This document shows, piece after piece, positions 5,741 to 57,306 of a stretch of DNA of 57,315 bases (within the stretch, counting starts at the first letter, position 1; every line of letters starts with the position of its first letter). The stretch comes from an uncultured Chthonomonadaceae bacterium. GTDB taxonomy: Bacteria > Armatimonadota > Chthonomonadetes > Chthonomonadales > Chthonomonadaceae. Under the pieces are notes generated by a model. The model had not been told where the DNA came from, made no database searches, and was given only the letters and a program-made list of their open reading frames with translations. Position numbers and translations under genes: made by a program. The stretch covers positions 1 to 57,315 of the forward strand of contig CAWIEK010000067.1 of NCBI GenBank assembly GCA_963835065.1, given 5' to 3'.

Positions 5741-6388
5741 GTGAGCGAAGTACAAAACAACAAAGTTATCGGTATCTTAGCGTTGCAGGGCGATTACGAC
5801 GCGCACCGGAAAGTGCTGGAAGACCAACTCGGCGCCCAAACCCGGCTTGTACGCGCTCCACAGGATTTAACGGACGTAGACGCCCTGATTTTGCCCGGCG
5901 GTGAAAGCACGACGATTGGCAAACTGATGCAGCGCATCGGCTTGGACGACGCCATCAAAGCGCGATTGGCAGCGGGGATGCCCGCGTATGGAACCTGCGC
6001 AGGTATGATTCTGCTGGCAAAGAACATTCAGGACAGGCCGGATCAACCGACGCTGAAAGCCTTGAACATCACCGTTGCTCGCAACGCTTTCGGACGGCAA
6101 ATTGACAGTTTCGAGGCGGACGTCCCTTTTCATCCGGCAGGCAACAACGGCAACGCGGAAGAGCAAGGAAACGGTGACAATGCCGTGCGCGGCGTGTTCA
6201 TTCGCGCGCCCTATGTCGTAGAAGCCGCGCCCGGTGTACAGGTTTTAGGCCATTTCCGCGATAAAATCGTGGCCGTGCAGCAGGGTACTCTGCTTGCCAC
6301 CGCCTTCCATCCCGAACTGACCGACGACCCGCAAGTCCATGCCTACTTCCTGAAAATAGTTGCGGCAAGCAAAGAACGGGGAAAATAA
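5741..6388 (+). CDS. pdxT: Pyridoxal 5'-phosphate synthase glutaminase subunit
   Basis: GILALQGD, PGGESTT, GTCAGMI and FHPELT motifs. Confidence 0.95.
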   Translation: MSEVQNNKVIGILALQGDYDAHRKVLEDQLGAQTRLVRAPQDLTDVDALILPGGESTTIGKLMQRIGLDDAIKARLAAGMPAYGTCAGMILLAKNIQDRPDQPTLKALNITVARNAFGRQIDSFEADVPFHPAGNNGNAEEQGNGDNAVRGVFIRAPYVVEAAPGVQVLGHFRDKIVAVQQGTLLATAFHPELTDDPQVHAYFLKIVAASKERGK

Positions 6389-6566
6389 ACCACGGAGAAC
6401 ACGGAGAAGAAACGAGAAAGGATTTACCACGGATGAAACAGATACCACGGATTGACGCGGATTAAATGCAACACTTGGATTTGATCCGTGTTCATCTGTT
6501 TCATCCGTGTCCTCCGTGGTAAGCATCCCCGTATTCCTCTCCGTGTTCTCCGTGTTCTCCGTGGTT
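6388..6566. repeat. Nested fold-back element of 9-nt repeats
   Basis: Outer arms AACCACGGAGAACACGGAGA / TCTCCGTGTTCTCCGTGGTT; inner arms CACGGATGAAACAGAT / ATCTGTTTCATCCGTG. Confidence 0.85.
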
Positions 6567-6594
6567 CATTCTCCTTTATGCAGGGAGGTAGATT

Positions 6595-8557
6595 ATGGTG
6601 GCGGGAGCGGTGGATTTGACGCGCAGCGCGTATGTGGCGATGCGGTCTGTGGGCGTGGATGCGGTACGGCTGGAAGATGGGTTTTGGAAGCCGCGTTTGG
6701 AAATCAATCGGACAGTGACGATTCCGGCGCAGTTGCGGCATTGTTACGAAACGGGGCGCGTTGACAACTTTCGGCGGGCGGCAGGGAAAGATCGGCGGCG
6801 AATTCAAGGGTCTGTACCCGTTCGATGATTCGGACGTGTACAAGTGGGCGGAAGCCGCGTCGTGGTCGTTGGCGACAATGCCTGACCCGAATTTGGAAGC
6901 CGATTTAGATGCAGTGATTCAGGAGATTGCGGATGCGCAACAGTCAGACGGTTATTTGAACACGTACTTCATGTTCGAGCGCGAAGCGGAGCGGTTTACG
7001 AACCTGAAGGACAAGCACGAGATTTACTGCGCAGGGCATCTGATACAGGCCGCGATTGCGCACCATCGGGCAACCGGTAAAACCACTCTGCTGAACGTCG
7101 CCATACGCTTTGCGGATTTGCTGGACAGCATTTTCGGGCCAGAGCCGAAACGCTTGGGAACGTGCGGACACGAAGAAGCGGAAATGGCGCTGGTCGAACT
7201 GTACCGCGAAACGGGAGAAGTTCGGTATCTGAACCTTGCGCGGTTTATGATAGATGCGCGGGGGCGTAAACCCGGTTTGTTCGGAGGAGGCAGGTACTAT
7301 CAGGATCACGCGCCGTTTATAGAGCAGGCGGATATGACAGGCCATGCCGTGCGGCAAATGTACCTGAATTGCGGCGCGGCGGATGTTTACGCCGAACAAG
7401 GCAATGTTCCCTATCGCCGCGCGCTGGAAAACTTGTGGGACAATTTCACCACAAAGCGCATGTACGTGACGGGCGGAGCCGGTTCGCGCTATGAGGGCGA
7501 AGCGTTCGGCGAAGATTACGAACTGCCCAATGACCGCGCGTACACGGAAACCTGCGCGGCCATCGGGAGCGTGATGTGGAACTGGCGGATGCTCAACATC
7601 ACGGGCGAAGCCAGATACGCCGACCTGATGGAGCATACGCTTTATAACGCGGTTCTGCCCGGCCTGTCGCTGGACGGAACGCGCTATTTTTATGAGAACC
7701 CGCTGGCGGATGCGGGCAAGCATCGGCGTCAGGAATGGTTCGGCTGCGCCTGCTGCCCACCCAACATCGCCCGCCTGCTCGCGTCCCTCCCCGGTTATTT
7801 TTACAGCACGTCGGAGGATGGCGTGTATGTGCATTTGTATGCGAAGGAACGGCAACGCTGCCAATGCCGGACGGCGGAGAAGATCGTACTGCAGCAGCAA
7901 ACCGAACTTCCCTGGGACGGCGGCGATTGATCTTCATGGATTCGAGAACGGCAATCCACGCAGGCGCTAATATCTTTGCTTGCGTATTCCCGAGATGGGC
8001 GCAAGTCCTTTTGGTACAGGATCGATGACGCGCAGATTGAATTGAACGGGCAAGACATGCCGGCGCGTCTTCCTATAGCCGCAAAGCCGGTGAACATACA
8101 CCCGAATTGCGCGCTCAGTGGAGCAGGAGACCTGGATTTCCCTGCGTCTGCCAATGGAGGTGGAACGTCTGCAAAGTCATCCACACGTTTTAGGAAACAC
8201 GGGACGTATCGCGCTTGCAGCGCGGCCCGCTTCTCTACTGCTCGAACAGGCGGATAGTCCTGACAGTGATGTGTGGGATGTGTATTTAGAGGAAGATGAG
8301 ACGGCTCTCGCAACCCTCAATGAGCCTGAATACAGGGTGGCATTGTAAAATTCGAGCGGCGTCGCAATGGCGCGAAGAACGGCGATATCAGAGCGGTGGA
8401 CTTTCAAAATTCATTCGGAAGGAACGCCTTTATGCCCCTGTATGCATTACCTATAGATTCCAGCGCCATGAAGCCAGTAGACATTACGGCCATACCGTAT
8501 TATGCCTGGGCCAACCGCGAACCGGGCGCAATGCAGGTGTGGATACCTGTTGCGTGA
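6595..8557 (+). CDS. GH127 beta-L-arabinofuranosidase-like glycoside hydrolase (several frameshifts)
   Basis: FDDSDVYKWAEA, HEIYCAGHL, GHAVR, YTETCA and CACCPPN motifs; C-terminal IPYYAWANR found by manual reading ending at TGA 8555-8557. Confidence 0.88.
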
Positions 8558-8662
8558 AATTTGACCTCATTCACCATAGATATGTGGACGCGCAATGTCT
8601 TAGTATGGGGCTATTTGGCCGCTCGCCCACAAACCACGCTCCGCACCGGTCTATAGTATACT

Positions 8663-9799
8663 ATGAGTATGTTTACCCTTCCTATAAACGCCTTGCGCGA
8701 ACAACCAAATACAAGTAACTCAATGCTCAACGCTCAACGCTCAATGCTTGATGCTCAATGCTCAACGCTGGATACTGAACACCGAACACGAACACGAACA
8801 CCGAGACCCTCCTATAACATCGGCTCCATTCGCATTGACCCGGCGGTAGTTCTTGCTCCGATGGCGGATGTGACGAACGGGGCATATCGGCGGCTGGTGA
8901 AGCGGATTGGCGGGCCGGGGCTGCTGGTGACGGAACTTATCAGCACGAACGCCATTCAGTACAAAAGCAAGAAAACGCTGTCCATGTTCGATGTGACGGA
9001 GGATCAGCGCCCGCTTGCCGTGCAATTATTCGGCAGCGACCCGCTCATCATGGCGGAAGCGGCGAAAGTGGCGGTGGGCGAAGGCGCGGACATTATTGAT
9101 ATTAACATGGGCTGCTGGGTTCCCAAAGTGTGCAAATCGGGCGGCGGCGCGGCCATGATGAAGGACGAGGCTTCCGCCTGCCGCGTGGTGGAAGCGATTG
9201 TCCGCGCCATAAATGTGCCGGTCACCGTGAAGACGCGGGCGGGCTGGAATTACGGGCATCTGGCGACGGCGCAACTGGCAAAGCGATTGGAAGAAGCCGG
9301 AGTGCAGGCGTTCGCGCTGCATGCCCGCTTTGCCGTACAGGGACACACGGGCGAAGCCGACTGGAACCTGATCCGCGAAATGAAAGCCGTCCTGACCAAG
9401 CCTGTTGTCGGCAACGGCGATGTGCGGACGCCTGAAGACGCGGTTCGGATGCTGCGCGAAACCGGCTGCGACGGCGTAATGATCGGGCGCGCGGCCATCG
9501 GCAACCCTTGGGCCGTCCGCGATATTACGCACTATCTGCGCACAGGCGAACTGCTGCCCCCGCCTGATTACGACGAGCGCGTAACCGTTGCCCTACAGCA
9601 CGTCACCGATCTGGCAAGCGTGATGGGTGAAAACAACGCCGTTCGGCACTTGCGCGGGCAGTTGCCGCACTATGTCAAAGGCTATACGGGCGCGCCCCGC
9701 CTGCGTGAAGCTATCGTCCGCGCCAATACCATTGCCGACATAGAATCCATATTCGCCGTCATGCGCGACCGCCTGCACGAATTTTGGAACTTCCGTTGA
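8663..9799 (+). CDS. dusB: tRNA-dihydrouridine synthase B (start uncertain; heptamer repeats at 8719-8804)
   Basis: VVLAPMA, DINMGCxVPKV and GVMIGRAAIGNPW motifs. Confidence 0.92.
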   Translation: MSMFTLPINALREQPNTSNSMLNAQRSMLDAQCSTLDTEHRTRTRTPRPSYNIGSIRIDPAVVLAPMADVTNGAYRRLVKRIGGPGLLVTELISTNAIQYKSKKTLSMFDVTEDQRPLAVQLFGSDPLIMAEAAKVAVGEGADIIDINMGCWVPKVCKSGGGAAMMKDEASACRVVEAIVRAINVPVTVKTRAGWNYGHLATAQLAKRLEEAGVQAFALHARFAVQGHTGEADWNLIREMKAVLTKPVVGNGDVRTPEDAVRMLRETGCDGVMIGRAAIGNPWAVRDITHYLRTGELLPPPDYDERVTVALQHVTDLASVMGENNAVRHLRGQLPHYVKGYTGAPRLREAIVRANTIADIESIFAVMRDRLHEFWNFR

Positions 9800-10648: not shown

Positions 10649-11148
10649 ATGGCGCTTTTTGGTTTTGAGTTGGAGGAGATTGCCCGCCTGATCGCGCTTG
10701 TGGACGCGCAGGGTCTGGAAGAGTTTATCTACGAGGAGGAAGGCCGCTTCCTGCGAATTCGCGGGCAGCGCGCCGCCAAACTCCCGCGTATCCATGTTGC
10801 CGCGCCGATCCCATCTGCTGCTTCTGAACCTGCGCCTTCCCGGTTCCCGCCAGTAACCGCCGCCCTGCGCCGCCCGCCAAAAAATCCGAGACGGTTCCCG
10901 CTGCCGATCAGATTGTTCTCGAATCGCCGATGATGGGCGTGTTCTATCGCGCGGAAAAAGCGGGCGCGGCCCCGCTCGTCAATGTTGGCGACCGGGTTTC
11001 CATCGGTCAAACCGTCGGCATCCTCGAAGCTATGAAAGTTTTTTCGGAATTCAAAGCGGAACACGCCGGCATCATCGCGTCTATTCCCGCGCAGGATGGG
11101 CAACTGGTGCAGGCCGGAGCGCCGTTGGTTGTGTTAAGGAAAGATTAG
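10649..11148 (+). CDS. accB: Acetyl-CoA carboxylase biotin carboxyl carrier protein (frameshift in Pro/Ala linker)
   Basis: N-terminal EEIARLI...LEEF region; SPMMGVFYRA; EAMK biotinylation motif. Confidence 0.85.
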
Positions 11149-11244
11149 GCATTAGGCATTAGGCATTAGGCAACCTATGCAGGAGAAAATTGGAATTTAT
11201 GGCAACTGCCTGTCAGTCGGCTTCTAATGCCTAATGCCTAATGC
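11145..11244. repeat. Inverted pair of heptamer arrays (TAGGCAT)n / (ATGCCTA)n
   Basis: Left array overlaps the accB stop; right array ends just before the hom RBS. Confidence 0.85.
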
Positions 11245-11258
11245 TTGTGGAGGTGTGC

Positions 11259-12572
11259 ATGAGCGGTCGGTCGCCGGATTGGGATAAAGAAAAAATCGTT
11301 ATTGGCGTGTTGGGGTTGGGCGTCGTCGGGTCGGGTACGGTGGATTTGCTGCAGCGCAACCGCCGCGCCATTGAGCAGAAAATCGGCCTGCCATTTGTGA
11401 TCAAGAAAGTCGCCGTGCGGGATGTGTACAAGCCGCGCGCCGTTGCCGTCGCCCGCGAACTGCTGACAACCAATGCGGGCGATATTCTGGACGACCCGGA
11501 CGTGGATATTGTCTGCGAACTGATCGGCGGCGTGGAACCGGCGCAGGGGTTTGTGCTGCGCGCCCTGCGCAACGGCAAGCAGATCGTCACGGCCAACAAA
11601 GAACTGATTGCCAAGCAGGGGCAAACCCTGATGGAAGAGGCCCGGCAGCGCGGCCTGGACTTTTTGTTTGAAGGCAGCGTTGCGGGCGGCATCCCCATCA
11701 TTCAGCCGATGAAAAACGCGCTGGCGGGCAACAAAGTCGAGGAAGTCGTCGGCATCATCAACGGCACGACCAATTATATCCTGACCAAAATGGCCCGCGA
11801 ACATGCCGACTTCAATGAGGTTTTGAAAGAAGCGCAGGAACACGGCTACGCGGAAGTGGACCCGACCAGCGACATCGAAGGCTACGACGCGCAGTACAAA
11901 ATCGCCATTCTCGCCTCTATTGCCTATGCCACCCGCGTCAATCTGGCGGATGTGTACGTAGAAGGCATTACGGGTATCGCCCGCGAAGATATCGAGTACG
12001 CGCACGAAATGGGCTACGTCATTAAATTGGTTGGCGTGGCGAAGCGGGAAGACGACCATCGCATACAGGTGCGCGTTCATCCCGTCCTACTGCTGCAATC
12101 GCATCCCCTTGCCGCCACAAATGACGTGTACAACGCCGTGATGGTCAAGGGCGACTCGGTTGGCGACGTGATGTTTTACGGCAGGGGCGCGGGCAGCGGG
12201 CCGACGGGCAGCGCGGTTGTCGGCGATATTATAGACGCCTGCCGCAACCTGCGACGGGGCGCGTCCGGGCGGGACGCCTATCTGTGCTTTGACGAAAAAT
12301 CCGTCGTGCCGATGGACGAAGTTGTCACGCGGCATTATATCCGCATGGTGGTGCAGGACCGTCCCAAAGTGCTGGCGGCGATTGCGGGCGTGTTCGGCGA
12401 TTTCAACATCAACATCGAATCTATGGTGCAGAAAACCATTCAGGGCAAGCACACCGATATTGTGTGGGTAATGCACGAAGCGCCGGGCCGCAGCGTCAAG
12501 CAGGCTTTGGAAGTTATCAAACAATTGCCGGTTGTCGTGGAAGTGAGCAACTGGCTTCGCGTGGAAGATTAG
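11259..12572 (+). CDS. hom: Homoserine dehydrogenase with ACT domain
   Basis: GLGVVGSG, VTANK, FEGSVAGGIP, GIINGTTNYIL; C-terminal ACT domain; GGAGG RBS. Confidence 0.95.
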   Translation: MSGRSPDWDKEKIVIGVLGLGVVGSGTVDLLQRNRRAIEQKIGLPFVIKKVAVRDVYKPRAVAVARELLTTNAGDILDDPDVDIVCELIGGVEPAQGFVLRALRNGKQIVTANKELIAKQGQTLMEEARQRGLDFLFEGSVAGGIPIIQPMKNALAGNKVEEVVGIINGTTNYILTKMAREHADFNEVLKEAQEHGYAEVDPTSDIEGYDAQYKIAILASIAYATRVNLADVYVEGITGIAREDIEYAHEMGYVIKLVGVAKREDDHRIQVRVHPVLLLQSHPLAATNDVYNAVMVKGDSVGDVMFYGRGAGSGPTGSAVVGDIIDACRNLRRGASGRDAYLCFDEKSVVPMDEVVTRHYIRMVVQDRPKVLAAIAGVFGDFNINIESMVQKTIQGKHTDIVWVMHEAPGRSVKQALEVIKQLPVVVEVSNWLRVED

Positions 12573-12704
12573 TGGCTGGTGACTGGTGGCTGGCGGTTGG
12601 TTGTTGGTAATGACCGGACGTTTCCAATCATCGGCCAAACTGCCGTTTGAGCGCTTTTTCCTTTCTCCCTTTTCCTTTTTCCTGAATTCAAGGAGTAGTA
12701 CCCT

Positions 12705-17940: not shown

Positions 17941-18723
17941 ATGCAGGTCAATCTGGAAGGCAAAGTCGTGCTGGTGACGGGAGCGGCAAAGGGAATTGGC
18001 AAGGCCATTGCGGATGTGCTTGCCGCCAATCATGCCCGCGTGGTTTACTCCGATATTGATGTGGAAGGGGCGCGTTTGGCGTCTGCGCATACGGCGGGAA
18101 GCCTTGCCTTGCATCTGGATGTTGGCGAACCGGAGCAAGTACGGCAGGGCGTTGATTTTGTCCTCGAACAGTGTGGGCGGCTTGACATTCTGGTGAACAA
18201 TGCGGGCATCAATACCTTGCAGCATCGCGTCAACGTAGACGCTTTTCCGCTGGAAGAGTGGGAACGGATCGTGCGCGTGGATATGACCGGCCTGTTTCTG
18301 ATGTCGCAGGCGGCGGCAAAACCGATGCTGGCGCAGGGCAGCGGGCGCATTATCAACATCGCTTCGGTGGTCGGACTGGTTCCGCTCAGGCTGCAAAGCG
18401 CATTTGTGGCGGCGAAAGCGGGCGTGGTCAATCTGACCCGCTCGATGGCGCTGGAACTGGGGCCGCAGGGCGTTCTTGTCAACGGCATCGCGCCGGGTTC
18501 CATTCTGACCGAAGGAACCCGGCAGTTGTTTTATGGCGAGGATGGCAAATTCCGCGAACGCGCAGCCGCGCTGCTGGCCCACATCCCGCTCGGACGCCCC
18601 GGTACGCCCGAAGAAGTGGCTCACGCCGCCCTCTTTCTGGCCGCCCCGGAAAGCAGTTACATCAACGGCCACATCCTCACCGTAGACGGCGGCTGGACGG
18701 CGGGGTATTTGCGGGAGTTTTAG
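17941..18723 (+). CDS. SDR-family oxidoreductase
   Basis: TGAAKGIG and NNAG motifs; FVAAK replaces canonical YxxxK; VDGG near C-terminus. Confidence 0.9.
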   Translation: MQVNLEGKVVLVTGAAKGIGKAIADVLAANHARVVYSDIDVEGARLASAHTAGSLALHLDVGEPEQVRQGVDFVLEQCGRLDILVNNAGINTLQHRVNVDAFPLEEWERIVRVDMTGLFLMSQAAAKPMLAQGSGRIINIASVVGLVPLRLQSAFVAAKAGVVNLTRSMALELGPQGVLVNGIAPGSILTEGTRQLFYGEDGKFRERAAALLAHIPLGRPGTPEEVAHAALFLAAPESSYINGHILTVDGGWTAGYLREF

Positions 18724-18834
18724 TCGGTGTTCGGTATTCGGTGTTCGGTGTTCGGGTAATACAAATGCACAAGTTTACAACAGTGACGATAGGTTTACCA
18801 TCCGAACACCTGAACACCTGAATACCTGAATACC
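18724..18834. repeat. Inverted pair of TTCGGTG / CTGAACAC-type arrays
   Basis: Lies between the SDR stop and the cupin RBS. Confidence 0.75.
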
Positions 18835-23310: not shown

Positions 23311-23314
23311 TACA

Positions 23315-23437
23315 TCAGGGGTCAGGGGTCAGGGGTCAGGGGTCAGGGAACACAATCTTGTTCACCTTCACTTTGTTTTTTATGACAAGCAAACAGGAAA
23401 CGGCGTTCCCTGACCCCTGACTCCTGATCCCTGATCC
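23315..23437. repeat. Inverted pair of heptamer arrays (TCAGGGG)n / (CCCCTGA)n
   Basis: Fills the DUF58-stop to BatA-start interval. Confidence 0.85.
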
Positions 23438-24343
23438 CTACCTCCTTTGACTGGATCGTGACGACAAATAGCGCGACAGCGCGGTGTCTACGGGCTGATC
23501 GGTGACAAGCTGCTGGTAGTCCATGTTGAGTTCGCGGCAGCCTTTTTTGAGTTTTTCGACATACGCGCCGAAAGCGTTCAGGTACTCGCGGCGCAGGGCG
23601 TTGGGTTCGGCCATCAGCGGCTCCTCGCCCTCCATGCCCTGAAACAGGGCGGAATCTTTGAAAGGAAACGTCAGTTCGTCCCGATCCAGAACGTGAAAAA
23701 TAATCACTTCATGCTTGCGATGCCGGAAGTGCTGCAAGCCACGCAGCATCTCGTCGGGGTCGGTAAACAGGTCGCTCAGAACAACCAGCAGGCCGCGCCG
23801 CTTTACTCGCTCCGCCAGATCGTGAAAGGTGTTGCCGATGGCGGTTTTGGGGGACGTGTCCCGTTTTTCCAGCATTTCCAGCAGCAGTTTCATGTGGGCG
23901 CTCGTGCCTGCCGGGGGAATGAACGTGCGGATATTATCATCAAATGTGGTCAGCCCGACGGTATCGCGCTGCCGCATCAGCAGGGACGCAATCGCAGCCG
24001 CGACAATGGCCGCGTATTCGCGCTTGGACAGAGCCGAATTGATGCCCTTGTAATCCATGCTCGTGCTGGTATCTACGACAAGCGTGGCTTTGAGGTTGGT
24101 TTCTTCCTCGTACTGCTTGATCTGGTAGCGATCCGAGCGGGCGTACACTTTCCAGTCAATATGCCGTATCTCGTCGCCGGGAACGTAATCGCGGTGCTGC
24201 GCGAATTCCACGCTGCTGCCCCGGTGCGGGCTTTTGTGCATGCCCGAAATCACGCCTTCCACGACGGCGCGGGCGCGCAGTTCCAGTCGGGAAATACGGG
24301 CAAGCGTTTGCGGGTCGGCCAGTTGTTTTGTTTGTGGTTCCAT
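23438..24343 (-). CDS. DUF58-domain protein
   Basis: GSSVEFAQHRDYVPGDEIRHIDWK, DTSTSM and LSD motifs. Confidence 0.95.
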   Translation of the reverse strand: MEPQTKQLADPQTLARISRLELRARAVVEGVISGMHKSPHRGSSVEFAQHRDYVPGDEIRHIDWKVYARSDRYQIKQYEEETNLKATLVVDTSTSMDYKGINSALSKREYAAIVAAAIASLLMRQRDTVGLTTFDDNIRTFIPPAGTSAHMKLLLEMLEKRDTSPKTAIGNTFHDLAERVKRRGLLVVLSDLFTDPDEMLRGLQHFRHRKHEVIIFHVLDRDELTFPFKDSALFQGMEGEEPLMAEPNALRREYLNAFGAYVEKLKKGCRELNMDYQQLVTDQPVDTALSRYLSSRSSQRR

Positions 24344-24382
24344 AAGTACAGGTGTTAGGTGTTAAGTGTTAGGTGTTCGGTG

Positions 24383-24559
24383 TTGTCTTGAACCATGATT
24401 TATGTGATTAGGATGATTGCCATGATTTTGAGAGACGCGTTGCTCATATTCTTCCTCTAATTGGACGAATTATAATTTTGATTGTGGCAAGCGAACGATG
24501 ATTTGAAGAGGAATCATCATGTTAATCATTATAATCACATAAATCATGGTTCAAGACAA
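24383..24559. mobile_element. MITE-like element with perfect 28-bp terminal inverted repeats
   Basis: TTGTCTTGAACCATGATTTATGTGATTA / TAATCACATAAATCATGGTTCAAGACAA; sibling at 43650-43755. Confidence 0.8.
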
Positions 24560-24560
24560 A

Positions 24561-25508: not shown

Positions 25509-25559
25509 GGCTATACCTGCTTGCCCGCGCTCAGGATGAAAGCGTCTGCTTTCGGCTGC

Positions 25560-26624: not shown

Positions 26625-26642
26625 TCAGAAAGCCTTTCAAAA

Positions 26643-26770
26643 AGTAGTCAGTAGTCAGTAGTCAGTAGTCAGTAGACGCATCTACCGCCAGATTGCCTCA
26701 TATCAGATAGCAATAAGTATGACAGCATTTCTACTGTCTACTGACTACTGTCTACTGACTACTGACTACT
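26643..26770. repeat. Inverted pair of heptamer arrays (AGTAGTC)n / (GACTACT)n
   Basis: Spans from the upstream gene's stop (26766-26768) to just before moxR. Confidence 0.85.
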
Positions 26771-27920
26771 TTCCTAAACAATACGCCAGCGCGATCAGCG
26801 TGTAACTGGTGACGAGGGCGGGCTGGTCTTCCCAATAGCGGGGATTGGAATTGAACCACGCGCCGTCCGGTTTTTGCCTGGCGATCAGAGCGCTTGCCAG
26901 GTCGCGCGCCCATTCGTGGGTGTTGCCTTTGGCGTCCTTGAACGATTTCAGGCCGTACACGTTGAGCGTTTTCGCCATCGCGTGATAGTAGTAGTACAGT
27001 GATACATCGCCCTGCCCCGGATGTTCCGCAACCGTGTAATTGGCGCGTATCCAGTCCCAGGCGGCTTTGGCGCGGGGATCGTCTTTGGACACGCCGCAAT
27101 AAATGTAGCTTTCCAGGCCGGCATACGTCATGGCGCCCATCGAAGTATGGTCGCCCGAACCCGTCGCCTTGCTTTCGCCCGTCGTGTCGTAGGCAAAACC
27201 GCCGTCATTCGGCCCGGTTTTCGCCCATGCCTGATCGTTGCTTGCGCGGCGGTTCTGCACCCGCTGCAAAAACGTAATCGCTTTCTGGAACACAGGCGCG
27301 TTGTAGGGTACGCCGGATTCTTTGAGGGATTGCAGCGCCATAGACAGGTTCGACAGATCGGGATGGTCGTCGGGATCGTTACCGTAGCCGATGCCGCCAT
27401 AAACGGGGTTCGATGTTTCGATGCCCTCGGTCTCGTCAAACTGCGACTGCTCCATGTACTTCTGCGCTTTAAGGATGATTGGCTTGTACGCCGGGTTCTT
27501 GGTCAGCGACAGAGACAGCAGGGAAAGCGCGGTATTGTAGTTGGGCAGAGAGCGGGCCGGGTCGCGGCTGTCGAAAATCGCGCCGTTGGGCTTGGCCGCG
27601 CGCAGCAGGAATTGAACGCCTTTGGCGACGGCGGGTTCCTTTAGTTCGGTTCTGCCGTTACGCATAAACGCGCACAGGGCAAGGGACGTAATCGCCGGGT
27701 AATGGCTCCACGAGCCATCTGTTTCCTGCACATGGCGCAGATAGTCCAATCCCTTATTGACCGCAAGCCGCGCATTGGCAAACACCGGGTCAGGCGCGGC
27801 CTGCGCTTCCATCACGGTTCCGCCCACCAATGCGCCCACGCCCACATTCGCCAAAAATCGCCGCCGCGTATACTGCGGACGTATTTTAGAGTTGATATTT
27901 GTTTCTTTAGAATCACTCAT
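26766..27920 (-). CDS. Tat-exported prenyltransferase/squalene-oxidase-repeat protein
   Basis: TRRRFL Tat motif; QETDGSW, DGGFAY and QKPDGAW repeats. Confidence 0.85.
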   Translation of the reverse strand: MSDSKETNINSKIRPQYTRRRFLANVGVGALVGGTVMEAQAAPDPVFANARLAVNKGLDYLRHVQETDGSWSHYPAITSLALCAFMRNGRTELKEPAVAKGVQFLLRAAKPNGAIFDSRDPARSLPNYNTALSLLSLSLTKNPAYKPIILKAQKYMEQSQFDETEGIETSNPVYGGIGYGNDPDDHPDLSNLSMALQSLKESGVPYNAPVFQKAITFLQRVQNRRASNDQAWAKTGPNDGGFAYDTTGESKATGSGDHTSMGAMTYAGLESYIYCGVSKDDPRAKAAWDWIRANYTVAEHPGQGDVSLYYYYHAMAKTLNVYGLKSFKDAKGNTHEWARDLASALIARQKPDGAWFNSNPRYWEDQPALVTSYTLIALAYCLGK

Positions 27921-29325: not shown

Positions 29326-30074
29326 TCATTTTTGAGGCGCGTCGGGCGCTTTGATGACAAACTCAATGGCTGTGCCGCGTTTCGGGGCGCGCTTGGTGTT
29401 GACGATATAGGCGTTGCTTGCGCCGCCGGGCAAAGGATTGTCCAGAATGGCGGCGGGATCATGCCATACGGCTACGAGTGATTTTTGCAGATCGGCTTCA
29501 AAGCCCTGCGCGATAATCCGCGAGCCGGTGAACACCCAATCGTGCGGAGGCATCGGCTTGCCGGACGGCAGTTCTGCTACCAAGTCCTCCGCCCGCGCTT
29601 CTTTCGCATTGCCCTGCGCATCCTTCCAGCGTACCCACAACTGAACCGGAGCGCCCTGCGGCGTGTTCTTATCCCCCTGCGTTTTCAGCACGTTTTTGGG
29701 TTCCAGGCCGAGCAGCAGCAACGCTACCTGTAAATGCAAAGGCCGAACCTCCAACGAGCAGCAAACTCTCGTGCGTTTTGCCGCGCGGCGCAACCGCCAG
29801 GTACTCAATCGCGCCCGTATCCATATTGATCGTGCCGGGACACGTCACGGTTCGCGCGCCCAAATCCACCGTCGACCTTGCCGATCCGGTACACCTTGTC
29901 GGTAATCTTCTCAACCGATGGCGGCTTGCCCTGCGCGGAGGCAGGAGAGGAGTTTGCACCACAGAGACACAGAGACACAGAGGTTACACAGAGAAAAGGG
30001 GAAAAGGAGAAGAGGAGAAGAGGAGACAAAGTTGTTTGCGCCAAACTAGTACGACTTTGCTGTAACAGATGCAA
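29326..30074 (-). CDS. YdjY-like secreted protein (frameshifts near 29870 and 29750; start uncertain)
   Basis: IEYLAVAPRGKTHESLL, PLHLQVALLLLGL and WVFTGS across three frames. Confidence 0.7.
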
Positions 30075-30161
30075 GGCTTTACCGATACAAGAAAAGCCCT
30101 CTGCCCTTTTCTCTCCAACCCCTCTGTGAAACCTCTGTGTCTCTGTGTCTCTGTGGTGCAA
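29954..30161. repeat. Fold-back element with perfect 32-bp arms (CACAGAGA)n
   Basis: TTGCACCACAGAGACACAGAGACACAGAGGTT and its exact reverse complement. Confidence 0.9.
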
Positions 30162-30168: not shown

Positions 30169-31458
30169 TTATTTCTGGTAGATGGGCAGCAGGCCGGCGG
30201 GCACTTGCAGCACCAGGCAGGCCATTGCGGTGGCGTATTCCGTTCCCGCTTCGGAAGTGGCGTCCGCGCGGCCCCAACTGCCGTCCGCGTCCTGCGAAGC
30301 GACAAGTCTGTCCCGAACGATGGGATACCACGATTTCCAGTAGTTGCCACCCGCCTGATACATCGCCTGCGTGACATAGTAAATCGAGTAGTGGAAGTGG
30401 TCGCGGTAAATCCAGTCGCTTCCTCGTTGCAGCGGATGCTTGACCAGATAATCCAAACCCGCCTGACACTGCCGCGAGTCTTTCAAGCCGGCGAGGTACA
30501 GCGACAGAACGCCCGCGCCCGTTCGCGCCGGGTTCGATTGGTTCATGCCGTACTGGTAACTGAAGCCGCCGTCCGTGTTCGCCAGCCGTTTCATATAACT
30601 GATGGCGCGGTCAATGGTCTGCTGCGACACTTTGATGCCCGCGTTGCGGCAGCCGCGCAGTCCCAGCACCTGCACGACGGTTACGGATAAATCCGCGTCG
30701 CCCTGCTGCGGCTGATAGCGCCAGCCACCGTCCCGCGATGGCTGCCCGTCCTGATTCTGCGTGTCTTCGATTAACTTTACAGCCGCCTGCAATTTTGTTT
30801 TCAGGTCGCGCCTTCGCGTCATGCCGTACACTTCCGCCAATCCCAAGAGCGCAAAGCCATGCCCGTACATCGGCGGGCCGGCTCCCCCGCCCTGCGTGGC
30901 GCGTATCAATCCCGGCGGCGTAAACTGCCCGTTCATCTGAATACTATTCGCAAGCCAGTCCACCACTTCGCTCAACACGACGCCATACCGCCCTCGCCCC
31001 GGCTGATGCCCTGCCGCCAGAAACGCCATCATGCACAGGCCGTTGATGCCCACGTCATTCCGATAGCCCTGACTGACCCAATGCCCGTCCGTCTGCTGCC
31101 GCGACGCCAGGTACGCCAGCCCTTTCGTAACCGCCGCTTCCGACTGCGGCGTTCCCAGATACTCCCGCGCTTCCACATCCCAAGAGGAGCCGACCTGACG
31201 GCGCGGCTTGCCCTGCGCATCTGCCGAGGAGGGGGAGTTTTCACCACAGAGACACAGAGACACAGAGGCTGCACAGAGGGCCTGGAGAGAAGAGGTTAGG
31301 AACTTTCTTCGGTCCACCGTATCCGGCTTAACCCTATCTAAATCTTTGGCCGGTTGTAAGGCATGCGGCCAATCGTCCTGCGGACGAAAGGAACTTTCAA
31401 CGCATTGAGGCTGACGTGTCCCAGATTGCGCCTCCGATTTTATGTATTTCTCCCCCAC
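30169..31458 (-). CDS. Tat-exported prenyltransferase/squalene-oxidase-repeat protein
   Basis: DRRKFL Tat motif; QQTDGHW, MYGHG, DGGWRY, ADLSVT and QDADGSW. Confidence 0.88.
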   Translation of the reverse strand: MGEKYIKSEAQSGTRQPQCVESSFRPQDDWPHALQPAKDLDRVKPDTVDRRKFLTSSLQALCAASVSLCLCGENSPSSADAQGKPRRQVGSSWDVEAREYLGTPQSEAAVTKGLAYLASRQQTDGHWVSQGYRNDVGINGLCMMAFLAAGHQPGRGRYGVVLSEVVDWLANSIQMNGQFTPPGLIRATQGGGAGPPMYGHGFALLGLAEVYGMTRRRDLKTKLQAAVKLIEDTQNQDGQPSRDGGWRYQPQQGDADLSVTVVQVLGLRGCRNAGIKVSQQTIDRAISYMKRLANTDGGFSYQYGMNQSNPARTGAGVLSLYLAGLKDSRQCQAGLDYLVKHPLQRGSDWIYRDHFHYSIYYVTQAMYQAGGNYWKSWYPIVRDRLVASQDADGSWGRADATSEAGTEYATAMACLVLQVPAGLLPIYQK

Positions 31459-31527
31459 TCCTCTTCTCCCCTCTCCCCGTCTTCTCTTCTCTGTGACCCC
31501 TCTGTGTCTCTGTGTCTCTGTGGTGAA
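31240..31527. repeat. Fold-back element with perfect 29-bp arms (CACAGAGA)n
   Basis: TTCACCACAGAGACACAGAGACACAGAGG and its reverse complement at 31499-31527. Confidence 0.9.
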
Positions 31528-35544: not shown

Positions 35545-35648
35545 AGGGTTGAGGGTTGAGGGTTGAGGGATTCTATAGTGATGAATGATGAGTGATGAAT
35601 GATGAATAAGAATCCGATTCAGCACTCATCACTCATCATTCATCATTT
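35545..35648. repeat. Heptamer arrays (GGGTTGA)n and inverted (TGATGAR)n/(YTCATCA)n
   Basis: Upstream of the DUF4175-like gene; the same units occur inside AddB. Confidence 0.75.
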
Positions 35649-43649: not shown

Positions 43650-43755
43650 TTTGTCTTGAACCATGATTTATATGATTTTGATGATTGCCATGATGGACGC
43701 GCTTCCTAAAATCATGGTAATCTCATAAATCACATAAATCATGGTTCAAGACAAA
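43650..43755. mobile_element. MITE-like element, sibling of 24383-24559
   Basis: 29-bp TIR TTTGTCTTGAACCATGATTTA.. with one mismatch. Confidence 0.8.
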
Positions 43756-50325: not shown

Positions 50326-50346
50326 ATCGGAAACGCTGTCAATACA

Positions 50347-50680
50347 TCTTCACCACAGAGGCACAGAGACACAGAGGGGTCACAGAGGGAAGAAAAAAAG
50401 GAGAAGAGATTAGAAACCGCGAAACACACGAAATAAACGAAAAAGAACCAAAAGAACAGGGGCAAATCCACAGATACCGCCGTATGGTCACAACAAACAG
50501 GCTTATCTTCTCCATTCGTAATTCTGTTTAATACTTCTAATCCCCTTAATCCTGTCTATTTATTTGTGTTCTTTTTTCGTTTTGGTTCGTATCTTTCGCG
50601 GTTCCCCTCTCCTTCCCTCCTCTTCTCCCTTCTTCTTTTCTCTGTGGCCCCTCTGTGTCTCTGTGCCTCTGTGGTGAAGA
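50347..50680. repeat. Nested fold-back element with perfect 33-bp outer arms
   Basis: TCTTCACCACAGAGGCACAGAGACACAGAGGGG and its reverse complement; inner AACCGCGAAA/TTTCGCGGTT pair. Confidence 0.9.
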
Positions 50681-50687
50681 CGTATTT

Positions 50688-51117: not shown

Positions 51118-54100
51118 TCAGGGTTGGTGGCGCGTTGTTTGCGTTGGAATAATTGGGAGGGTTTCGCCGTCGTGCCCGCCCAATGCGGATGTGCGGCACA
51201 CATCGCCATAAGCGCAGAAGCGGCAATGATCGCCGGGTGTGGCTTCGATGTTGCCGGCGACAATGGAGCGGGCCAGACGCACGGCGGTGGCTTCCGCTGT
51301 TTTCAGCAAATCGGCGTACTGGCTGCGGTTGAGAGGCGTAACGCTGGTTCCATCTTCCAGGGGCGCGAGGGGCGCGAATTGGCGCGAACTGACATGCTCG
51401 GAGCGGTGAAAACGCCGCCGTCCACGCTCCTGCGCGCTGTCGTAGCAGGCAACCGCGCCGACCTTGTTGAACACCCGTTCGATTGCCAGCAGATACAACG
51501 GCATTTGTAAACTCTGCCCGCGTTGCGCGTCGGCGAACGTGGGCGGCTTGCCCATCTTGTAATCCATGACCAGCGCCCGCATCCCCGTCCCGTCCAGATC
51601 AACCCGATCCAACGTGCCGCAAATCGCAACCGGAGGTCCGCCATCCGCCACGTTGAGCAGCAATGGCTCGGCGCAGGAAGCGGCATCACAAAGCGCAGTG
51701 GCAGAAGTATCCGTGTTTTCCTGTTCTCCCAACCCGTATTCCAATTGCCGCTCTTCCTCATCTTCCCAATCGGGCCGAGTTCCCACGCCAAACGACAATT
51801 CAAAGTGCGTCGGGTTCATGCCGAACTGCGTTTGAAATCGCTCTTCGCGCGCCACAAAGCCGTCCAGCGCGTCAGAAAGCAGCCGGCGCGTCATTTGCTT
51901 CTGGTGCAGTCCCACATCCATCTGCTCCTGCGCCAGCATCTCGGCCAGGATATATTGTAACGCTTCGCGGGTTGAGGGATTTTCGATTTTCGATTTTCGA
52001 TTGTTCGATTGTGGATTGCGTTTCTTCTGTTCCCTGTTCCCTGTTCCCTGTTCCCTGCTTTTCCGTCTTCTGTCTTCTGTCTTCTGTCTTCTTTGCCGCA
52101 AAATACCGATGCAGCACGGCATGGTAGATTGTGCCTTGCGTACGGGCAGCGATGCCTTCTTCTTCCAGGCGCAGGCGCAGAACGTGGCGCATGAAATACT
52201 GAAAGGGGCAGCGTCCGTAACTTTCCAGTTCGGTCACGCTGAAGACAGCGCGATGGTTAGCGAATTGGCGGCGCAGGCGCTCCGCTTCCAGGCGCGGCAG
52301 GCGCGGCAATTCGCGCGACTCCACCACGCGCTGCGCTATGAGACGATCCGCTTCCCCCTCCAAACACGCCTGCATCAGCGTCACGGCATTGTGCCACTCG
52401 GCATCCGCAATGCGCCCCGTTCCCGGATCAAACAGCATGGCGCACGCCGCCAGCAACTTATCCTTGCCCGAAATCACTTCGTCAGGACGCGGCGCGACAT
52501 CGGCCAGGGTACGAGACACAATGTTGATAGTTGATAGTTGACAGTTGATAGTTGAAGGCCGATCACTGGCTGCCAACGCCGCTTTCCGTTTCCCCCTGTC
52601 CTCCTCCGTGCCCCCCGTGTTCCCCGTGGTTTGTCTTCTCCCCTCCGTGTCCTCCGTGTTCTCCGTGGTTATACCCTCCGCTTCCTGTTCGCCAAAGACC
52701 GCGCGAACTTCGTCCAGGTAGAAGGACGGCAGGGTATCGGACTCGTCGGCGGAGCGGGGGTAAGAAAGGATCAGGCGTTCGGAGGGGGCGGTGACAGCGA
52801 GATAAAAGAAGAAACGCTCGTCGTCAGCGCGGCCTTTCTGCTCTTCCAGATCCAGGCCGGCCCACTCGCGCAGAGCAATGCGCTCGGCGTCGCGCAAAAA
52901 CGGGTCTTCCGTAATGCGGCGGGGAAACACGCGCTCCGTCAGTCCCATCACCGCCGCCACTTTGAGTGGGCGTTCGCGCGTATCGTAGGGTTCCGCCACG
53001 CGCACCCGGTCTCCTTCGGCAGTGGCAGTGGAGGACGCTGTTTTCCACGTCGCCAGCAATTCGTCATGAAACGCTTCAAACGTCATGGCCTGCCGCCCGG
53101 AAAGCGCGGCCATTTGCGCTAAAGCGCCCAACACGTCCTGTGCCGCCTGCCACGCCGCCCGGTCTCGGTGCTGCCGGGTCTGCTCGCCCTGCGCAATCCG
53201 CTCGTACATCCCAAAATGCGCCACAATCTCTTCCATCAGCAGAGCAAACCGGCGCGGGTCCTGCCGCTCCCGCGTCAGCAGCGCGTCGTAATGCGCCATG
53301 TCGAGCAGGGTCGTCGCTAATGCTGAGTGATGAGTGATGAGTGATGAATGGGATGCTGCATTGTATTCATCATTCATCACTCCGCGTTCAGCATTGTCTT
53401 CCTTCTCCTCTTCTCTTCTTCTTTTCTTCTCTTCTGTTCCCTCTAACAGTGCCAGCCAGCGTTCGCGGCCTTCCCGTACCCCGGCTTGGCGGGCGCGGCG
53501 GCGGAGGCTGTCGGCTTCGATCTTGTCGGGCGCGGTGTAGCTGGATTTCAGAAAGGCGAGAACATCGTCGCGCTGCCAGTTGTGCCTCACCACGTTCAGG
53601 AAATGCAGCAGGGTTTTCAGGAACGGGTTTTCGGCCAGAACTTCCGGGCCGTCAATGCCCAGAGGGATGGCGTGACGCTCGAAAACCGCCGCCAAAATCG
53701 GCGCGTAATCGCCCATCGCCCGCAAAATCACGGCAAAGTCGCTCCACGCATACCGGCCCGTGTCGTACAAGCGCCGAAACGCCCGCGCCACCATTTCCGC
53801 CTCAACGTAGGGATTGGGCGCGTCGAACAACTGTAAAGGAGGGTGTTGGGTGTTAGGCAATGCTGAGTGCTGAGTGATGAGTGATGAATGGGAGTTCAAT
53901 TCATCACTCATCATTCCGCGTTCAGCATTGCCTTCTGTTCCCTGTTCCCTGTTCCCTATTCTCTGTTCTATCTCCTTTTCTTTCTCTGCATCGAACAGCC
54001 AGTCACTCAATAACGCGAGCGCGGGCGGGCGGGCGGGAGGCGTGTAGGTGAGGTGGATTTCGCGGCAGGCGAATTCCTGTTGGAGCAGGGCGAGGGTGCG

Positions 54101-54931
54101 GGCGGGGGCGGCGAACAGCAGAGGGCGGCGCGACTCGTAGGGCAGGGTGACGGCCACTTCAATTGGCGGTTGTTCCTGCGCAGAAGAAACTTGGCTTGCG
54201 AGCGCGGCCAGCAGGTGGCGTTGCATGGCGTTGAAGCGGTAGAAGCCATCTACCACGATGCAGGAGGTTTGGGGCGGCAGGGCCGCATAGCCGGAATGGA
54301 TGCCTTCTACGGCAAGGCGCAGGCAGTCCTCCTCATCGCGCAACTGGTGGTCAGTGAGAAACGTTTCGTAAGCGCGGTACAGGCGAGCCAATTCTTCGGT
54401 TTTACGCGCAAACGTCGGGTCAGCCAGGGCTTCGGCGACAACCGGGCCGGACTGTTCCAGCAAATCAGGCGTCAGGCAGGCCAGTTTCCATTCGCGCAGG
54501 CGTTCGGCAAACGCGGGCACAAAGCCGGGCGCGCGCAGCATCCGGCCCAAAAAGTCGTCGGCGCGAATGTGGTTGGGAAACAGATTGGTAAGCGCAAGCC
54601 GCTGAAACGCGCGCCCGATAGCGCCCATCGGTAAAGCCTCTTCATCTTCGGTTTCCCGGTCTTCGATCAGGCGGGCAACCAACTGCCGAAACGTTACCAT
54701 GCAGGGCAGGATTTCATCGGCGGGAAGGCTCAGGCGGGCGGCAAGCTGTTCGGCGCGGGTTTGCGCCTGCTGCGGTGAGGACACAATCAGCAGGCCGCGC
54801 TGTCCGTCCCGCAGGCAGGTTTCCAGCCGATGCAGCGCCCACTCCGTTTTGCCCGACCCGGCAGGCCCCAGTATCAGCGTCAAGGCAGGCCGCGTATTTG
54901 CCGCTTTCGCGCCCGGTGTTTTGGTTTTCAT
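51118..54931 (-). CDS. AddB/RexB-like helicase-nuclease subunit with PD-(D/E)XK domain (frameshift near 51970-52090)
   Basis: GPAGSGKT, VDGF, EAEMVAR, SYP, FSVTELESYGRCPFQYF, GTLDRVD, DYK, LQMPLY and CRFCAYGDVCR Fe-S cysteines. Confidence 0.88.
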
Positions 54932-55382: not shown

Positions 55383-56004
55383 CTTTCTGAAGGAGCTAAT
55401 CTGATGAACTTGCAAACAAACACAAAGCAACAATCCTCATCCACTCTCTTGTCGTTGACTTCAGGATTTGTTTTGATACTAATTATTTTCGTGGCGGCAG
55501 TAAAATTGCTGCTTTTCTTCCTACGTGTATTTACAGCGTTCCTGCTCCTGTTCAGGCTGCTGTAATTGCTGGAAGTGTCACTGTTCTAGTGTCTGTCACT
55601 TCCCTGATTTTATCTGCAAAGTACCAGAAACAACGTGACATAGAGGCAGAGCATAGAAAGCAGAAATCTGAAATATATGAAGAATTTATGGGATTTTGGT
55701 TTAATATTTGATGAGGGATAAACTTGGGGAAGAAGCCATAACTGAAACGGAGTTGTGGCAGTTCGTTGCTAAATTCAACCAGAGGATGATCGTTTGGGGA
55801 TCAGATGAAGTAATGAAGGAGTACATTCGCTTCCGATCCGCCTTCGTACCTAGTGTCTCTGAGGAAGAACCGAATCCAACATACATGCTGAACTCATTCG
55901 AAAGATTACTTTATACGATACGTCGAGACTTAGGACATGCGAACAAAAATTTGGTTGAAAAAGATTTATTAAGATTATTCGTAAATGATATAGATAACTA
56001 CTAA
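55383..56004 (+). pseudogene. AT-rich hypothetical membrane protein, frameshifted
   Basis: TM N-terminus, middle AAVIAGSVTVLVSV...KSEIYEEF read manually, C-terminus IVWGSDEV...IRRDLGH. Confidence 0.6.
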
Positions 56005-56186
56005 GTAGACTGAAGGCCACACTTCGTAGAAATTTGATTTCGAAAATACACGAACTTACACCAACGGGCTACTTAGATCAATTTACTAGGCACAGACACT
56101 TACTTAATGCGCCACCATCTGGTCCCACCTAAATGTGATTTATGACTGCTTTTTATGGTTGCATTTCTGAAATGCAATAATTAGAA

Positions 56187-57140
56187 ATGGAGGCGCATAT
56201 TACCAGCAAGATCAATAAAACAGATTTGGATACGCGGGTTGTTCTTGAACGCCTGAATACAATGACAGCGGCCTTTGCTCCTACACCCTTTGTCTATGAA
56301 GATCAATTGATAAATGATTCGGAGTGGGCGTTAAGGGAGGGAAGTTTGCACTTCGAGCAAAAAAGCGCGGTGCAGGCCACCTTGCGCAAAATTACGGCGC
56401 GACTTGCTGACCTTCACATTGACTATGCGGTTGTCGGTGGCATGGCGTTGTTTCAGCACGGGTTTCGGCGCTTTACGGAAGATGTAGACATTCTCGTAAC
56501 GCGGGAAGGGCTGAAAATCCTTCACGCGCAATTGGAAGGGCGCGGCTACGTGCCGCCGTTTGCGGGCAGCAAGAACCTGCGTGACGCCGAGTTTGGCGTT
56601 CGCATCGAGTTTCTGATTGCGGGCGAGTATCCCGGCGACGGCAAGCCCAAGCCGGTTGCGTTTCCCGACCCTGCAACCGTTGCCATTGAACGCGATAACA
56701 TCCGCTATCTGGCGCTGCCTGCCCTTATTGAACTGAAACTCGCGTCTGGCATCTCGGGCGCAGGCCGTATCAAAGACCTTGCCGACGTGCAGGAACTCAT
56801 CAAGATGTTCGCCCTGCCGCAGGATTATCAAAACCAATTAAATCCCTATGTGCGCGGCAAGTATCTGGAACTCTGGCAAAGCGTGACGACCATTCCTGCG
56901 CGATACATTTCGATTTTACAAACCGCCATTCCGCTCCCACAGGCGCACTCCCTGACCGACCTGATTGCCCTATTGCCCGAAGAGGCGGCTCACTTAACGG
57001 CTATGCAGCAGGCGGGCGTTGTTTTCGATCCCGAACGCAGCCGCCCGGAAAAAGGCTATTTCGTTCTGGCAACGCATGACGCGGAGGTTGCGCAAGCGTA
57101 TGGCCTGCACACCGAGTCGGAAGTCATGTACGAGGAATAA
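56187..57140 (+). CDS. Nucleotidyltransferase-superfamily protein
   Basis: YAVVGGMAL...RFTEDVDIL, LIELK and RIKDLAD motifs. Confidence 0.8.
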   Translation: MEAHITSKINKTDLDTRVVLERLNTMTAAFAPTPFVYEDQLINDSEWALREGSLHFEQKSAVQATLRKITARLADLHIDYAVVGGMALFQHGFRRFTEDVDILVTREGLKILHAQLEGRGYVPPFAGSKNLRDAEFGVRIEFLIAGEYPGDGKPKPVAFPDPATVAIERDNIRYLALPALIELKLASGISGAGRIKDLADVQELIKMFALPQDYQNQLNPYVRGKYLELWQSVTTIPARYISILQTAIPLPQAHSLTDLIALLPEEAAHLTAMQQAGVVFDPERSRPEKGYFVLATHDAEVAQAYGLHTESEVMYEE

Positions 57141-57143
57141 ACC

Positions 57144-57306
57144 TAACTTTTCACCACCAAGACACCAAGAACACCAAGCAGAACGAGAAAAATAAGAAGA
57201 AAGACGTTGTAGAATTACCGGAGAGAACGAACCTGTCTTGGATTCTATGCCTTCTGAATTGCCTGTTTTCTCTTGGTGTTCTTGGCGTCTTGGTGGTGAA
57301 AAGTTA
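57144..57306. repeat. Fold-back element with 35-bp arms (CACCAAGA)n
   Basis: TAACTTTTCACCACCAAGACACCAAGAACACCAAG and its reverse complement with one mismatch. Confidence 0.88.

Follow-up and report, generated by a model that had tools for sequence, protein, structure and literature searches.

Repeat-armed fold-back elements at gene junctions of an uncultured Chthonomonadaceae bacterium: likely selfish hairpins with the anatomy of intervening sequences

The stretch of DNA considered here (hereafter, the window) comprises 57,315 nucleotides from an uncultured Chthonomonadaceae bacterium of the Armatimonadota (GenBank assembly GCA_963835065.1, contig CAWIEK010000067.1, positions 1 to 57,315 of the forward strand) and corresponds to contig C67 of an 8.0-Mb, 92%-complete assembly, designated G000. 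Many of its gene junctions hold a fold-back element, in which a short tandem array of a 7-9-nt "word" is followed by its reverse complement. An earlier inspection of the letters alone (the sequence-only reading) had described nine such pairs, all of which are present, and these nine belong to a population of about 700 repeat-armed fold-back elements of the genome, likely of a selfish nature. Eight of the nine fall within the 25 longest inverted repeats listed for the window. RNA folding of four of them (11145, 18724, 26643 and 50347) gave z scores of -3.9 to -15.6, with no shuffle folding equally well, and the folds of two further window hairpins lie within the same range. Comparisons within the genus were made with the genomes G002 and G001, the closest relative being only ~82% identical; the genome and metagenome contigs scanned held no relative above 91% protein identity. 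The elements of the window are as follows:

6380..6574, forward strand: hairpin with the word CACGGAGAA (arms 6380-6408 and 6546-6574), overlapping the TAA (6386-6388) of a pdxT-like gene and followed by a ribosome-binding site (RBS) and an ATG (6595); the junction carries hairpins with two other words in G002 and G001.
6424-6471 and 6475-6522, forward strand: second hairpin, nested inside the 6380..6574 element.
8719-8801, forward strand: solo or decayed array before dusB.
11144..11244, forward strand: TAGGCAT hairpin (word at 93 loci), providing the TAG (11146-11148) of an upstream biotin-carrier-like open reading frame (ORF), with the homoserine dehydrogenase ATG at 11259; other-word hairpin at this junction in G002, none in G001.
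12572-12683, forward strand: solo or decayed array.
13455-13523, forward strand: solo or decayed array, in frame in a membrane protein gene.
18724..18834, forward strand: TTCGGTG / GAACACCT hairpin with imperfect, bulged arms (RNA fold z -6.0), starting right behind the TAG (18721-18723) of an SDR gene; the cupin ATG is at 18849.
23314..23439, reverse strand: TCAGGGG hairpin between a DUF58 gene (stop 23438-23440) and a BatA/vWA gene (start 23310); no counterpart in six alignable loci of relatives.
24350..24559, reverse strand: solo AGGTGTT array plus GTCTTGAACC-family hairpin (24383-24426 / 24516-24559); 33 loci.
26641..26772, reverse strand: AGTAGTC hairpin, providing the TAG (26766-26768) of the upstream gene; site empty in G002, hairpin of another family in G001.
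29954..30161, reverse strand: CACAGAGA hairpin with an inner GAGAAGAG layer; the 3' arm shares the reading frame of the gene downstream, for which it codes a hydrophobic N-terminal stretch.
31240..31527, reverse strand: CACAGAGA hairpin with a loop in which the downstream gene likely starts, and with a 3' arm that codes for the hydrophobic portion of a signal-like peptide (RRKFL...LCAASVSLCLCG).
35545..35647, reverse strand: solo AGGGTTG array plus TGATGAA hairpin (35579-35607 / 35617-35645); AACTATC-type hairpin at this junction in G002.
43650..43755, reverse strand: GTCTTGAACC-family hairpin, absent in G002.
50341..50686, no strand assigned: nested hairpin between convergent genes, with CACAGAG as the outer word and an inner ACCGCGAAA layer (50415-50444 / 50574-50603; RNA fold -185 kcal/mol, z -15.6); other word with a 1.1-kb loop insert in G002, site empty in G001.
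51978-52092, 52523-52670, 53319-53439 and 53855-53968, reverse strand: repeat inserts in an AddB-like gene, two of them hairpins.
57144..57306, forward strand: CACCAAGA hairpin, beginning 3 nt past a TAA (57138-57140).

Besides the nine pairs, the window carries further hairpins (24383, 35579, 43650, 53319 and 53855) and many solo arrays. The elements at 29954 and 31240 are the sole two of the nine that are common to G002, where the tip is altered on both arms.

The same architecture recurs throughout the genome, in which 2836 arrays of period 7-9 were counted; for 32 word pairs, the number of arrays exceeds 20. On contig C49, 242 heptamer arrays and 151 hairpins compare with one and three, respectively, in a Markov-3 copy; genome-wide, 406 same-word inverted pairs lie at most 200 nt apart, vs. 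19-33 in three word shuffles, and direct pairs number 16. An independent hairpin finder returned 1485 hairpins, among which 729 have one or both arms made of an array and 520 have such an array on either side, a few long spans being false pairs between neighbours. The typical copy has a median arm of 30 bp (about four words) and a median loop of 54 nt, and the purine-rich arm leads in 660 hairpins vs. 48. Hairpins nest inside one another and leave solo arrays, and 1539 of the 2836 arrays are found outside catalogued hairpins. The density of heptamer arrays per 100 kb amounts to 30.5 in G000 (contig C49), 10.5 in G002 (1.6 Mb) and 2.5 in G001 (0.4 Mb), and no heptamer array was found in 100 kb sampled from each of the family members G004, G005, G013 and G014. 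In G000 and G002, tRNA-like genes are bracketed by AGTTGAT arrays (G000:C49:430354).

The sequence-only reading had regarded the repeat unit as specific to its locus; this has to be revised, since the words constitute genome-wide families, each window word occurring at 5-93 loci, and the hairpins at 29954, 31240 and 50347 belong to one word family. Arm variants described as private are, as stated, nearly always matched on both arms, but they are private within the window only: the TTGCACC tip occurs at five loci of the genome (partner arm with the mirrored form, 8 vs. 0) and the GAGGCAC tip at 43 (36 vs. 4). Altogether, 187 of 268 deviant arm bases are mirrored in the partner arm, vs. 68 expected from other family members, a count that is inflated by the choice of hairpins for their pairing; that changes are mirrored across partner arms is supported. 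The mean score of the own partner arm exceeds the family mean in 13 of 13 families. The stronger notion, by which every element would match itself best, was rejected, as the partner arm of the same element ranked first in only 23 of 345 cases.

Between species of one genus, copies are gained, lost and replaced. Among the 96 element sites alignable with G002 in 1.65 Mb, 34 hold an other-word hairpin, 19 are empty, 10 have the same word, six a one-base variant and 10 something else, and 17 have a hairpin of another kind or one whose array escaped the detector. The predicted presence/absence at orthologous junctions is, thus, observed, as is the prediction that pairing outlasts sequence (34 vs. 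10 of the 96 sites), with the qualification that the ~82% identity of the closest relative blurs insertion ends and that some "empty" sites may be losses. In a separate test of co-directional junctions, G002 was occupied at 30 of 62 occupied junctions vs. 7 of 198 unoccupied ones. Among site pairs with different words, loops are homologous in just 2 of 22 testable cases, so that, of the two processes that occur, replacement and word change in place, the former seems the more frequent. In-place word swap as the main cause of word differences at one site was rejected on the same count, a test limited by neutral divergence. One loop family was found under AGTAGTC, AAGACAG and ACGGTAG, and homologous loops are shared by 36 of 54 AGTAGTC copies and by only 11 of 57 AGGCATT copies; the copies at C3:219999 and C3:223918 have 98%-identical loops between unrelated flanks, in opposite orientation. 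Target-site duplications of at least 4 nt were not found above the shuffled null (k=4, 36 of 503 vs. 36.7; k=5, 12 vs. 9.3), with k=3 being marginal (128 vs. a null of 110 with a maximum of 124), and several empty sites are similar to the arm tip for a few bases. At the G002 junctions matching window positions 6388 and 50347 (L013 and L016), inserts of 1.1-1.6 kb, probably insertion sequences, lie in the loops of word hairpins.

Slippage and template switching are known mutational processes, and it might be asked if any mobile element is needed at all, given that microsatellites grown by slippage could be made palindromic in place by template switching. Such an origin would account for private changes being mirrored, for tips that reach into host sequence, for the few pairs that share a loop under different words, and for the many arrays outside catalogued hairpins. 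We nevertheless hold it to be very improbable: the fixed purine-first polarity, the uniform size, the recurrence of a family's loops at sites with unrelated flanks and the specific association with two gene families, described below, require common descent, and the loops common to unrelated sites largely refute it already.

Regarding placement, for which genes were called by a crude in-house caller with unreliable start positions, 447 of the 729 hairpins lie between co-directional genes, 76 between convergent and 18 between divergent ones, 40 within genes, 141 far from a confident gene and seven at contig edges. Of the co-directional gaps of 80-600 nt, 430 of 1867 hold an element, or about a fifth, as do 75 of 356 convergent and 21 of 409 divergent gaps in this size range. 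The sequence-only reading had seen several hairpins beginning on the upstream stop codon and ending just before the next start, which is a genome-wide tendency: a tip lies at -10 to +9 nt of the upstream stop in 320 of the 447 co-directional cases, and an in-frame ATG follows the 3' tip by 10-19 nt in 156, a stop-hugging pattern that any tolerated insert in tight operon gaps would partly give as well. Several arms themselves supply the upstream stop codon (11146 and 26766). An intrinsic terminator function was rejected, because no U tract follows the stems; at least five T within 8 nt after the 3' tip were found in only 14 of 441 sense-strand cases. A structured non-coding RNA or self-splicing intron found no support, with zero Rfam matches at gathering score in the window and variable loops. 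Likewise, -10-like motifs in 371 loops showed neither excess nor strand bias, and promoter-like sites between 17500 and 36500 number eight vs. 5.9 expected.

Mirrored arms alone cannot tell selection on RNA from template switching in DNA, which is why wobble pairs were used: were selection to act on the mRNA, sense-strand G·U pairs should be preferred to A·C. In gene-less co-directional copies (n=441), G·U pairs number 129 vs. 160 A·C pairs, and in copies inside genes the bias is inverse (9 vs. 39). Cassettes carrying a gene (n=32), which are introduced below, show 49 G·U vs. 27 A·C (p 0.015 by base; 17 vs. 7, p 0.06, by cassette), the contrast between filled cassettes and gene-less copies being significant at p 0.003, with kin not independent. 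Loops of the AGTAGTC family are oriented 18:18 relative to transcription. The sequence-only reading had suggested an RNA-level element that loops itself out of polycistronic mRNA; the missing sense-strand G·U preference and the random loop orientation speak against it, as do the same repeats in frame inside 257 protein genes. We read the data such that RNA pairing matters, if at all, for filled cassettes, empty copies being strand-symmetric DNA elements. The G·U contrast, thus, suggests that filled cassettes pair as RNA and that empty ones act as DNA relics.

The same evidence bears on the possibility that the hairpins are RNA elements maintained by the host, in which RNase III cuts the stems between cistrons, or a stop codon is brought beside the next RBS, so as to process, stabilise or couple operon mRNAs, with the word being free and only the pairing kept. 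An RNase III gene is present in G000, and the enzyme has been described to cut the Coxiella intervening sequence (IVS) (PMC4990558) and Correia elements in mRNA (PMC10969869). Furthermore, tips lie close to stop codon and RBS, divergent gaps are avoided (21 of 409 vs. 505 of 2223 other gaps), gene-carrying cassettes have the sense-strand G·U bias, and occupied sites are common to G002 well above background. However, the 441 co-directional gene-less copies lack this bias and copies in genes invert it, loop orientation is random, the same junctions work hairpin-free in relatives, four family members are without arrays in the 100 kb sampled of each, and sites persist inside protein genes, too. 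Weighing both sides, we regard a host RNA role as unlikely. As in rRNA intervening sequences, stems in mRNA would be substrates of RNase III, which in gene-less copies may be tolerated rather than selected.

Inside coding sequence, 580 arrays sit more than 60 nt within 257 of the 3578 confident genes. Only 36 of these 580 have a stop triplet in the sense word, vs. 1088 of 2836 arrays overall, for which reason intragenic arrays are likely translated. In the AddB-like gene of the window, the last three inserts are in frame and the frame changes at the first (51978-52092); both same-genus relatives hold other inserts at the same four spots. This gene (51118-54931) is split into two frames near 51978-52100, where G002 and G001 read through, the split being either a genuine frameshift or an assembly error. 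The signal-like N-terminus at 31240 owes its hydrophobic part to the 3' arm in both G000 and G002; the orthologues in G001 and L029 use other arrays, and that in L025 has an ordinary N-terminus. The cassette on contig C39 is present at the same junction in G000, G002 and G015, both of its arms being built from another word in each genome, and the next gene is likely started by a conserved Shine-Dalgarno sequence and GTG located where the nuclease gene ends. In some copies, an arm has come to provide a stop codon, a start or a signal peptide, by which these copies are likely locked in.

A link to cassettes carrying four-helix-bundle or GxxExxY genes had been suggested in the sequence-only reading, and it is found in this very genome: G000 has three four-helix-bundle (TIGR02436) and three GxxExxY genes, and all six lie between word arms, some of them made of the window's own words. 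A four-helix-bundle gene on contig C8 is bracketed by AGTAGTC, the word of window 26643, and the GxxExxY gene on C39 by CACGGAGAA, the word of window 6388. The GxxExxY cassette on C19 has a 5' arm of the CACAGAGA family and a 3' arm of CACCAAGA, the word of window 57144; its G002 orthologue (L085) has CACCAAGA on both sides, so that one C19 arm stems from another family. In a survey of 31 genomes of the order, with 30 loci listed per search, 15 full-length four-helix-bundle and 23 near-full-length GxxExxY loci were kept among the matches listed, partial and weak hits being dropped; among these, 14 of 15 and 18 of 23, respectively, have inverted arms, vs. 0 of 150 ordinary genes of similar length. 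The period of the arm word is mostly 7 at four-helix-bundle loci and 8-10 at GxxExxY loci. Distant arm pairs were listed with their enclosed ORFs and judged by eye, and those genes between correctly polarised arms that could be named are of the two small families. The density of heptamers (30.5/10.5/2.5) tracks the four-helix-bundle gene counts of 3/2/0 in G000/G002/G001, a small sample.

Concerning the proteins, orthologous cargo pairs are under purifying selection (dN 0.055, dS 0.60). The three GxxExxY proteins share a D...ELK motif, which we take to be that of a PD-(D/E)XK nuclease; no solved structure matched GxxExxY by sequence. The four-helix-bundle protein matches TIGR02436 and PDB 2GSC, and Avd weakly; a diversity-generating retroelement was rejected, given scores of 27-32 bits vs. 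the Avd cut-off of 80. Two reverse transcriptase (RT) genes of G000 lie on other contigs than the four-helix-bundle genes, one of them beside a cas1-like gene, and a retro-mechanism was discarded, as nothing connects the two to the cassettes. An RT next to cas1-, cas2- and cas6-like genes (named by eye) is located within a ribosomal protein cluster (G000:C49:679223-683452). The one paper found to place GxxExxY near an RT concerns a Cas4-like call (10.1101/2021.01.26.428298).

How gene-less hairpins could derive from cassettes is indicated by a decay intermediate: a cassette of G002 (L106) is represented in G000 (C21) by the gene tail and the 3' arm only, the gene and the 5' arm being lost. In G002 and G001, the sites of the three G000 four-helix-bundle genes are either empty or taken by gene-less hairpins built from other words. 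Some cassette genes are flanked by two complete hairpins or by runs of repeated arms (L059, L094, L098, L107 and L111), an arrangement in which deletion between direct copies would yield a gene-less hairpin. At the site of a G002 four-helix-bundle cassette, G000 has a solo AGGCATT arm and then an apparent toxin-antitoxin pair, as judged by eye (G000:C24:82603-83612).

The tie to two gene families also matters for the idea that the hairpins are ordinary elements resembling miniature transposable elements with inverted repeats (MITEs) or REPINs, moved by a transposase elsewhere in the genome (e.g., Y1/RAYT), with the small genes as mere passengers. They are indeed short, non-coding, high in copy number and inverted at their ends, they insert into genes as Rickettsia palindromic elements do (PMC10969869), and the genome has four Y1_Tnp matches. 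Against this stand the lack of a target duplication of at least 4 nt, the more than 30 unrelated words in which no common terminal motif was seen, and the restriction of nameable genes within correctly polarised arms to the two families; we therefore judge this explanation to be decidedly unlikely.

On balance, and with modest confidence, we favour the reading that the hairpins are gene-less DNA derivatives of IVS-like cassettes, which spread and replace one another by arm-based recombination, the GxxExxY protein being the likely cutter. Copies would spread as DNA, through recombination that relies on the arms or on brief similarity to the tip of an arm, and no target would be duplicated. As a putative PD-(D/E)XK enzyme, the GxxExxY protein would likely cut in trans, and the word arrays may be bound by the four-helix bundle. 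The element already resident at a site would probably be a preferred landing pad for an incoming one, so that sites persist while words turn over, and slippage together with template switching would likely keep the arms pure and mirrored.

Several observations weigh against this reading. A tblastn search with 38 cargo proteins matched just the six genes and one weak hit; neither the window copies nor the other gene-less copies hold a detectable cargo remnant, that of C21 being visible via its orthologue only. The abundant words AGGCATT, AGTTGAT and AAGGATG, like most words, are without a cassette in the 92%-complete assembly, and G005 has a four-helix-bundle cassette yet no array in its 100-kb sample. 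Many pairs with near-identical loops have their flanks in common, too, and represent duplication rather than movement. The strong conservation of sites between G000 and G002 is also compatible with a host need for the hairpin, and the inflation of mirrored variants and the blurred insertion ends mentioned above count on the same side.

More tentatively, the cassettes may represent a class of mobile DNA that does without a transposase and extends across phyla ("intervening sequences outside rRNA"), in which each of the two proteins would recognise its own word arms and carry cassettes, filled or empty, to the ends of genes. By providing stop codons, starts and signal peptides, such cassettes would become entrenched, and the heptamer repeats of bacteria, as well as repetitive linker peptides found in hundreds of proteins per genome, would originate from them.

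The surroundings of the hairpins offer some further observations. GTAG-type palindromes resembling repetitive extragenic palindromes (REP), with an inverted pair and inner direct repeats, lie at window 27979-28080 as a separate repeat class; akin palindromes stand in for word hairpins at some G002 junctions. A long imperfect hairpin without tandem words is located between two genes at 20280-20409, and a similar-looking element is nested in G002 hairpins. The region 21136-35625 comprises a MoxR AAA / DUF58 / vWA operon, two prenyltransferase-fold genes included, whose gene order is kept across the family; in G000, an element is present at nearly every junction of this operon. Several genes look frameshifted (1246-4609, 6595-7930, 29326-29960 and 31533-35625; a tricorn-like protease, GH127 and others), which suggests indel errors in the assembly.

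In comparison with known systems, the closest likeness in anatomy is that to the 23S rRNA intervening sequences of Coxiella burnetii and Leptospira, as far as the portions consulted go (PMC4990558). The Coxiella IVS has a 28-bp stem, tandem heptamers before an ORF, and is excised by RNase III; terminal inverted repeats are common to both systems, with a stem of ~28 bp there and a median arm of 30 bp here, and so is a four-helix-bundle (S23p) gene inside the arms, found here in three cassettes of the genome and absent from the window copies (PMC4990558). In contrast, both the window copies and the six cassettes are situated between protein genes rather than in rRNA, the design serves a second cargo (GxxExxY) as well, gene-less copies exceed filled ones by about 100 to 1, and RNase III cutting is putative. 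The elements are, thus, IVS-like in anatomy and not members of the IVS class, as they are not in rRNA.

MITEs, Correia elements and Rickettsia palindromic elements are short, non-autonomous hairpin repeats, some of them in frame in genes, according to the parts of the source drawn on (PMC10969869). With MITEs, the present elements share terminal inverted repeats, shortness and the absence of an internal transposase; they differ in that no target duplication was found, no cognate transposase was identified in the by-eye reading of ORFs between distant arm pairs, and the arms consist of tandem words.

In our search, outside of which lay most subscription journals and supplements, no publication was found that connects arms of word arrays with these genes outside rRNA. 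The protein families TIGR02436 and TIGR04256 have no tested function, and the link to heptamers opens direct assays for them. Heptamer repeats themselves have been reported from bacteria. In Xanthomonas and Nostoc, GGGAATC / GGGGA(C/T)T heptamers form intergenic arrays of mostly four units, situated between aligned genes and rarely between divergent ones, with 70-75 inverted pairs per Xanthomonas genome, as described in the sections seen (PMC4692102, Rehm et al. 2015). There, one word is concerned, which was read as a G-quadruplex former and for which the authors, in those sections, found no tie to mobile elements (PMC4692102); here, more than 30 words are in use, most of them unable to form quadruplexes, and species turnover and cargo genes are evident. 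The TAACTGA repeats of Beggiatoaceae, cyanobacteria and Bacteroidetes are similar in being heptamer arrays that end just upstream of start codons, patchy across phyla and, in the portion consulted, without a known means of spread (PMC4679880, MacGregor 2015); neither "four helix" nor "intervening" occurs in the main text of that paper. They are direct repeats regarded as candidate regulator sites (PMC4679880), whereas the arms described here are paired. For such bacterial heptamer repeats, reported without known origin in what was seen of both papers (PMC4692102, PMC4679880), the hairpins of the present genome are a candidate source.

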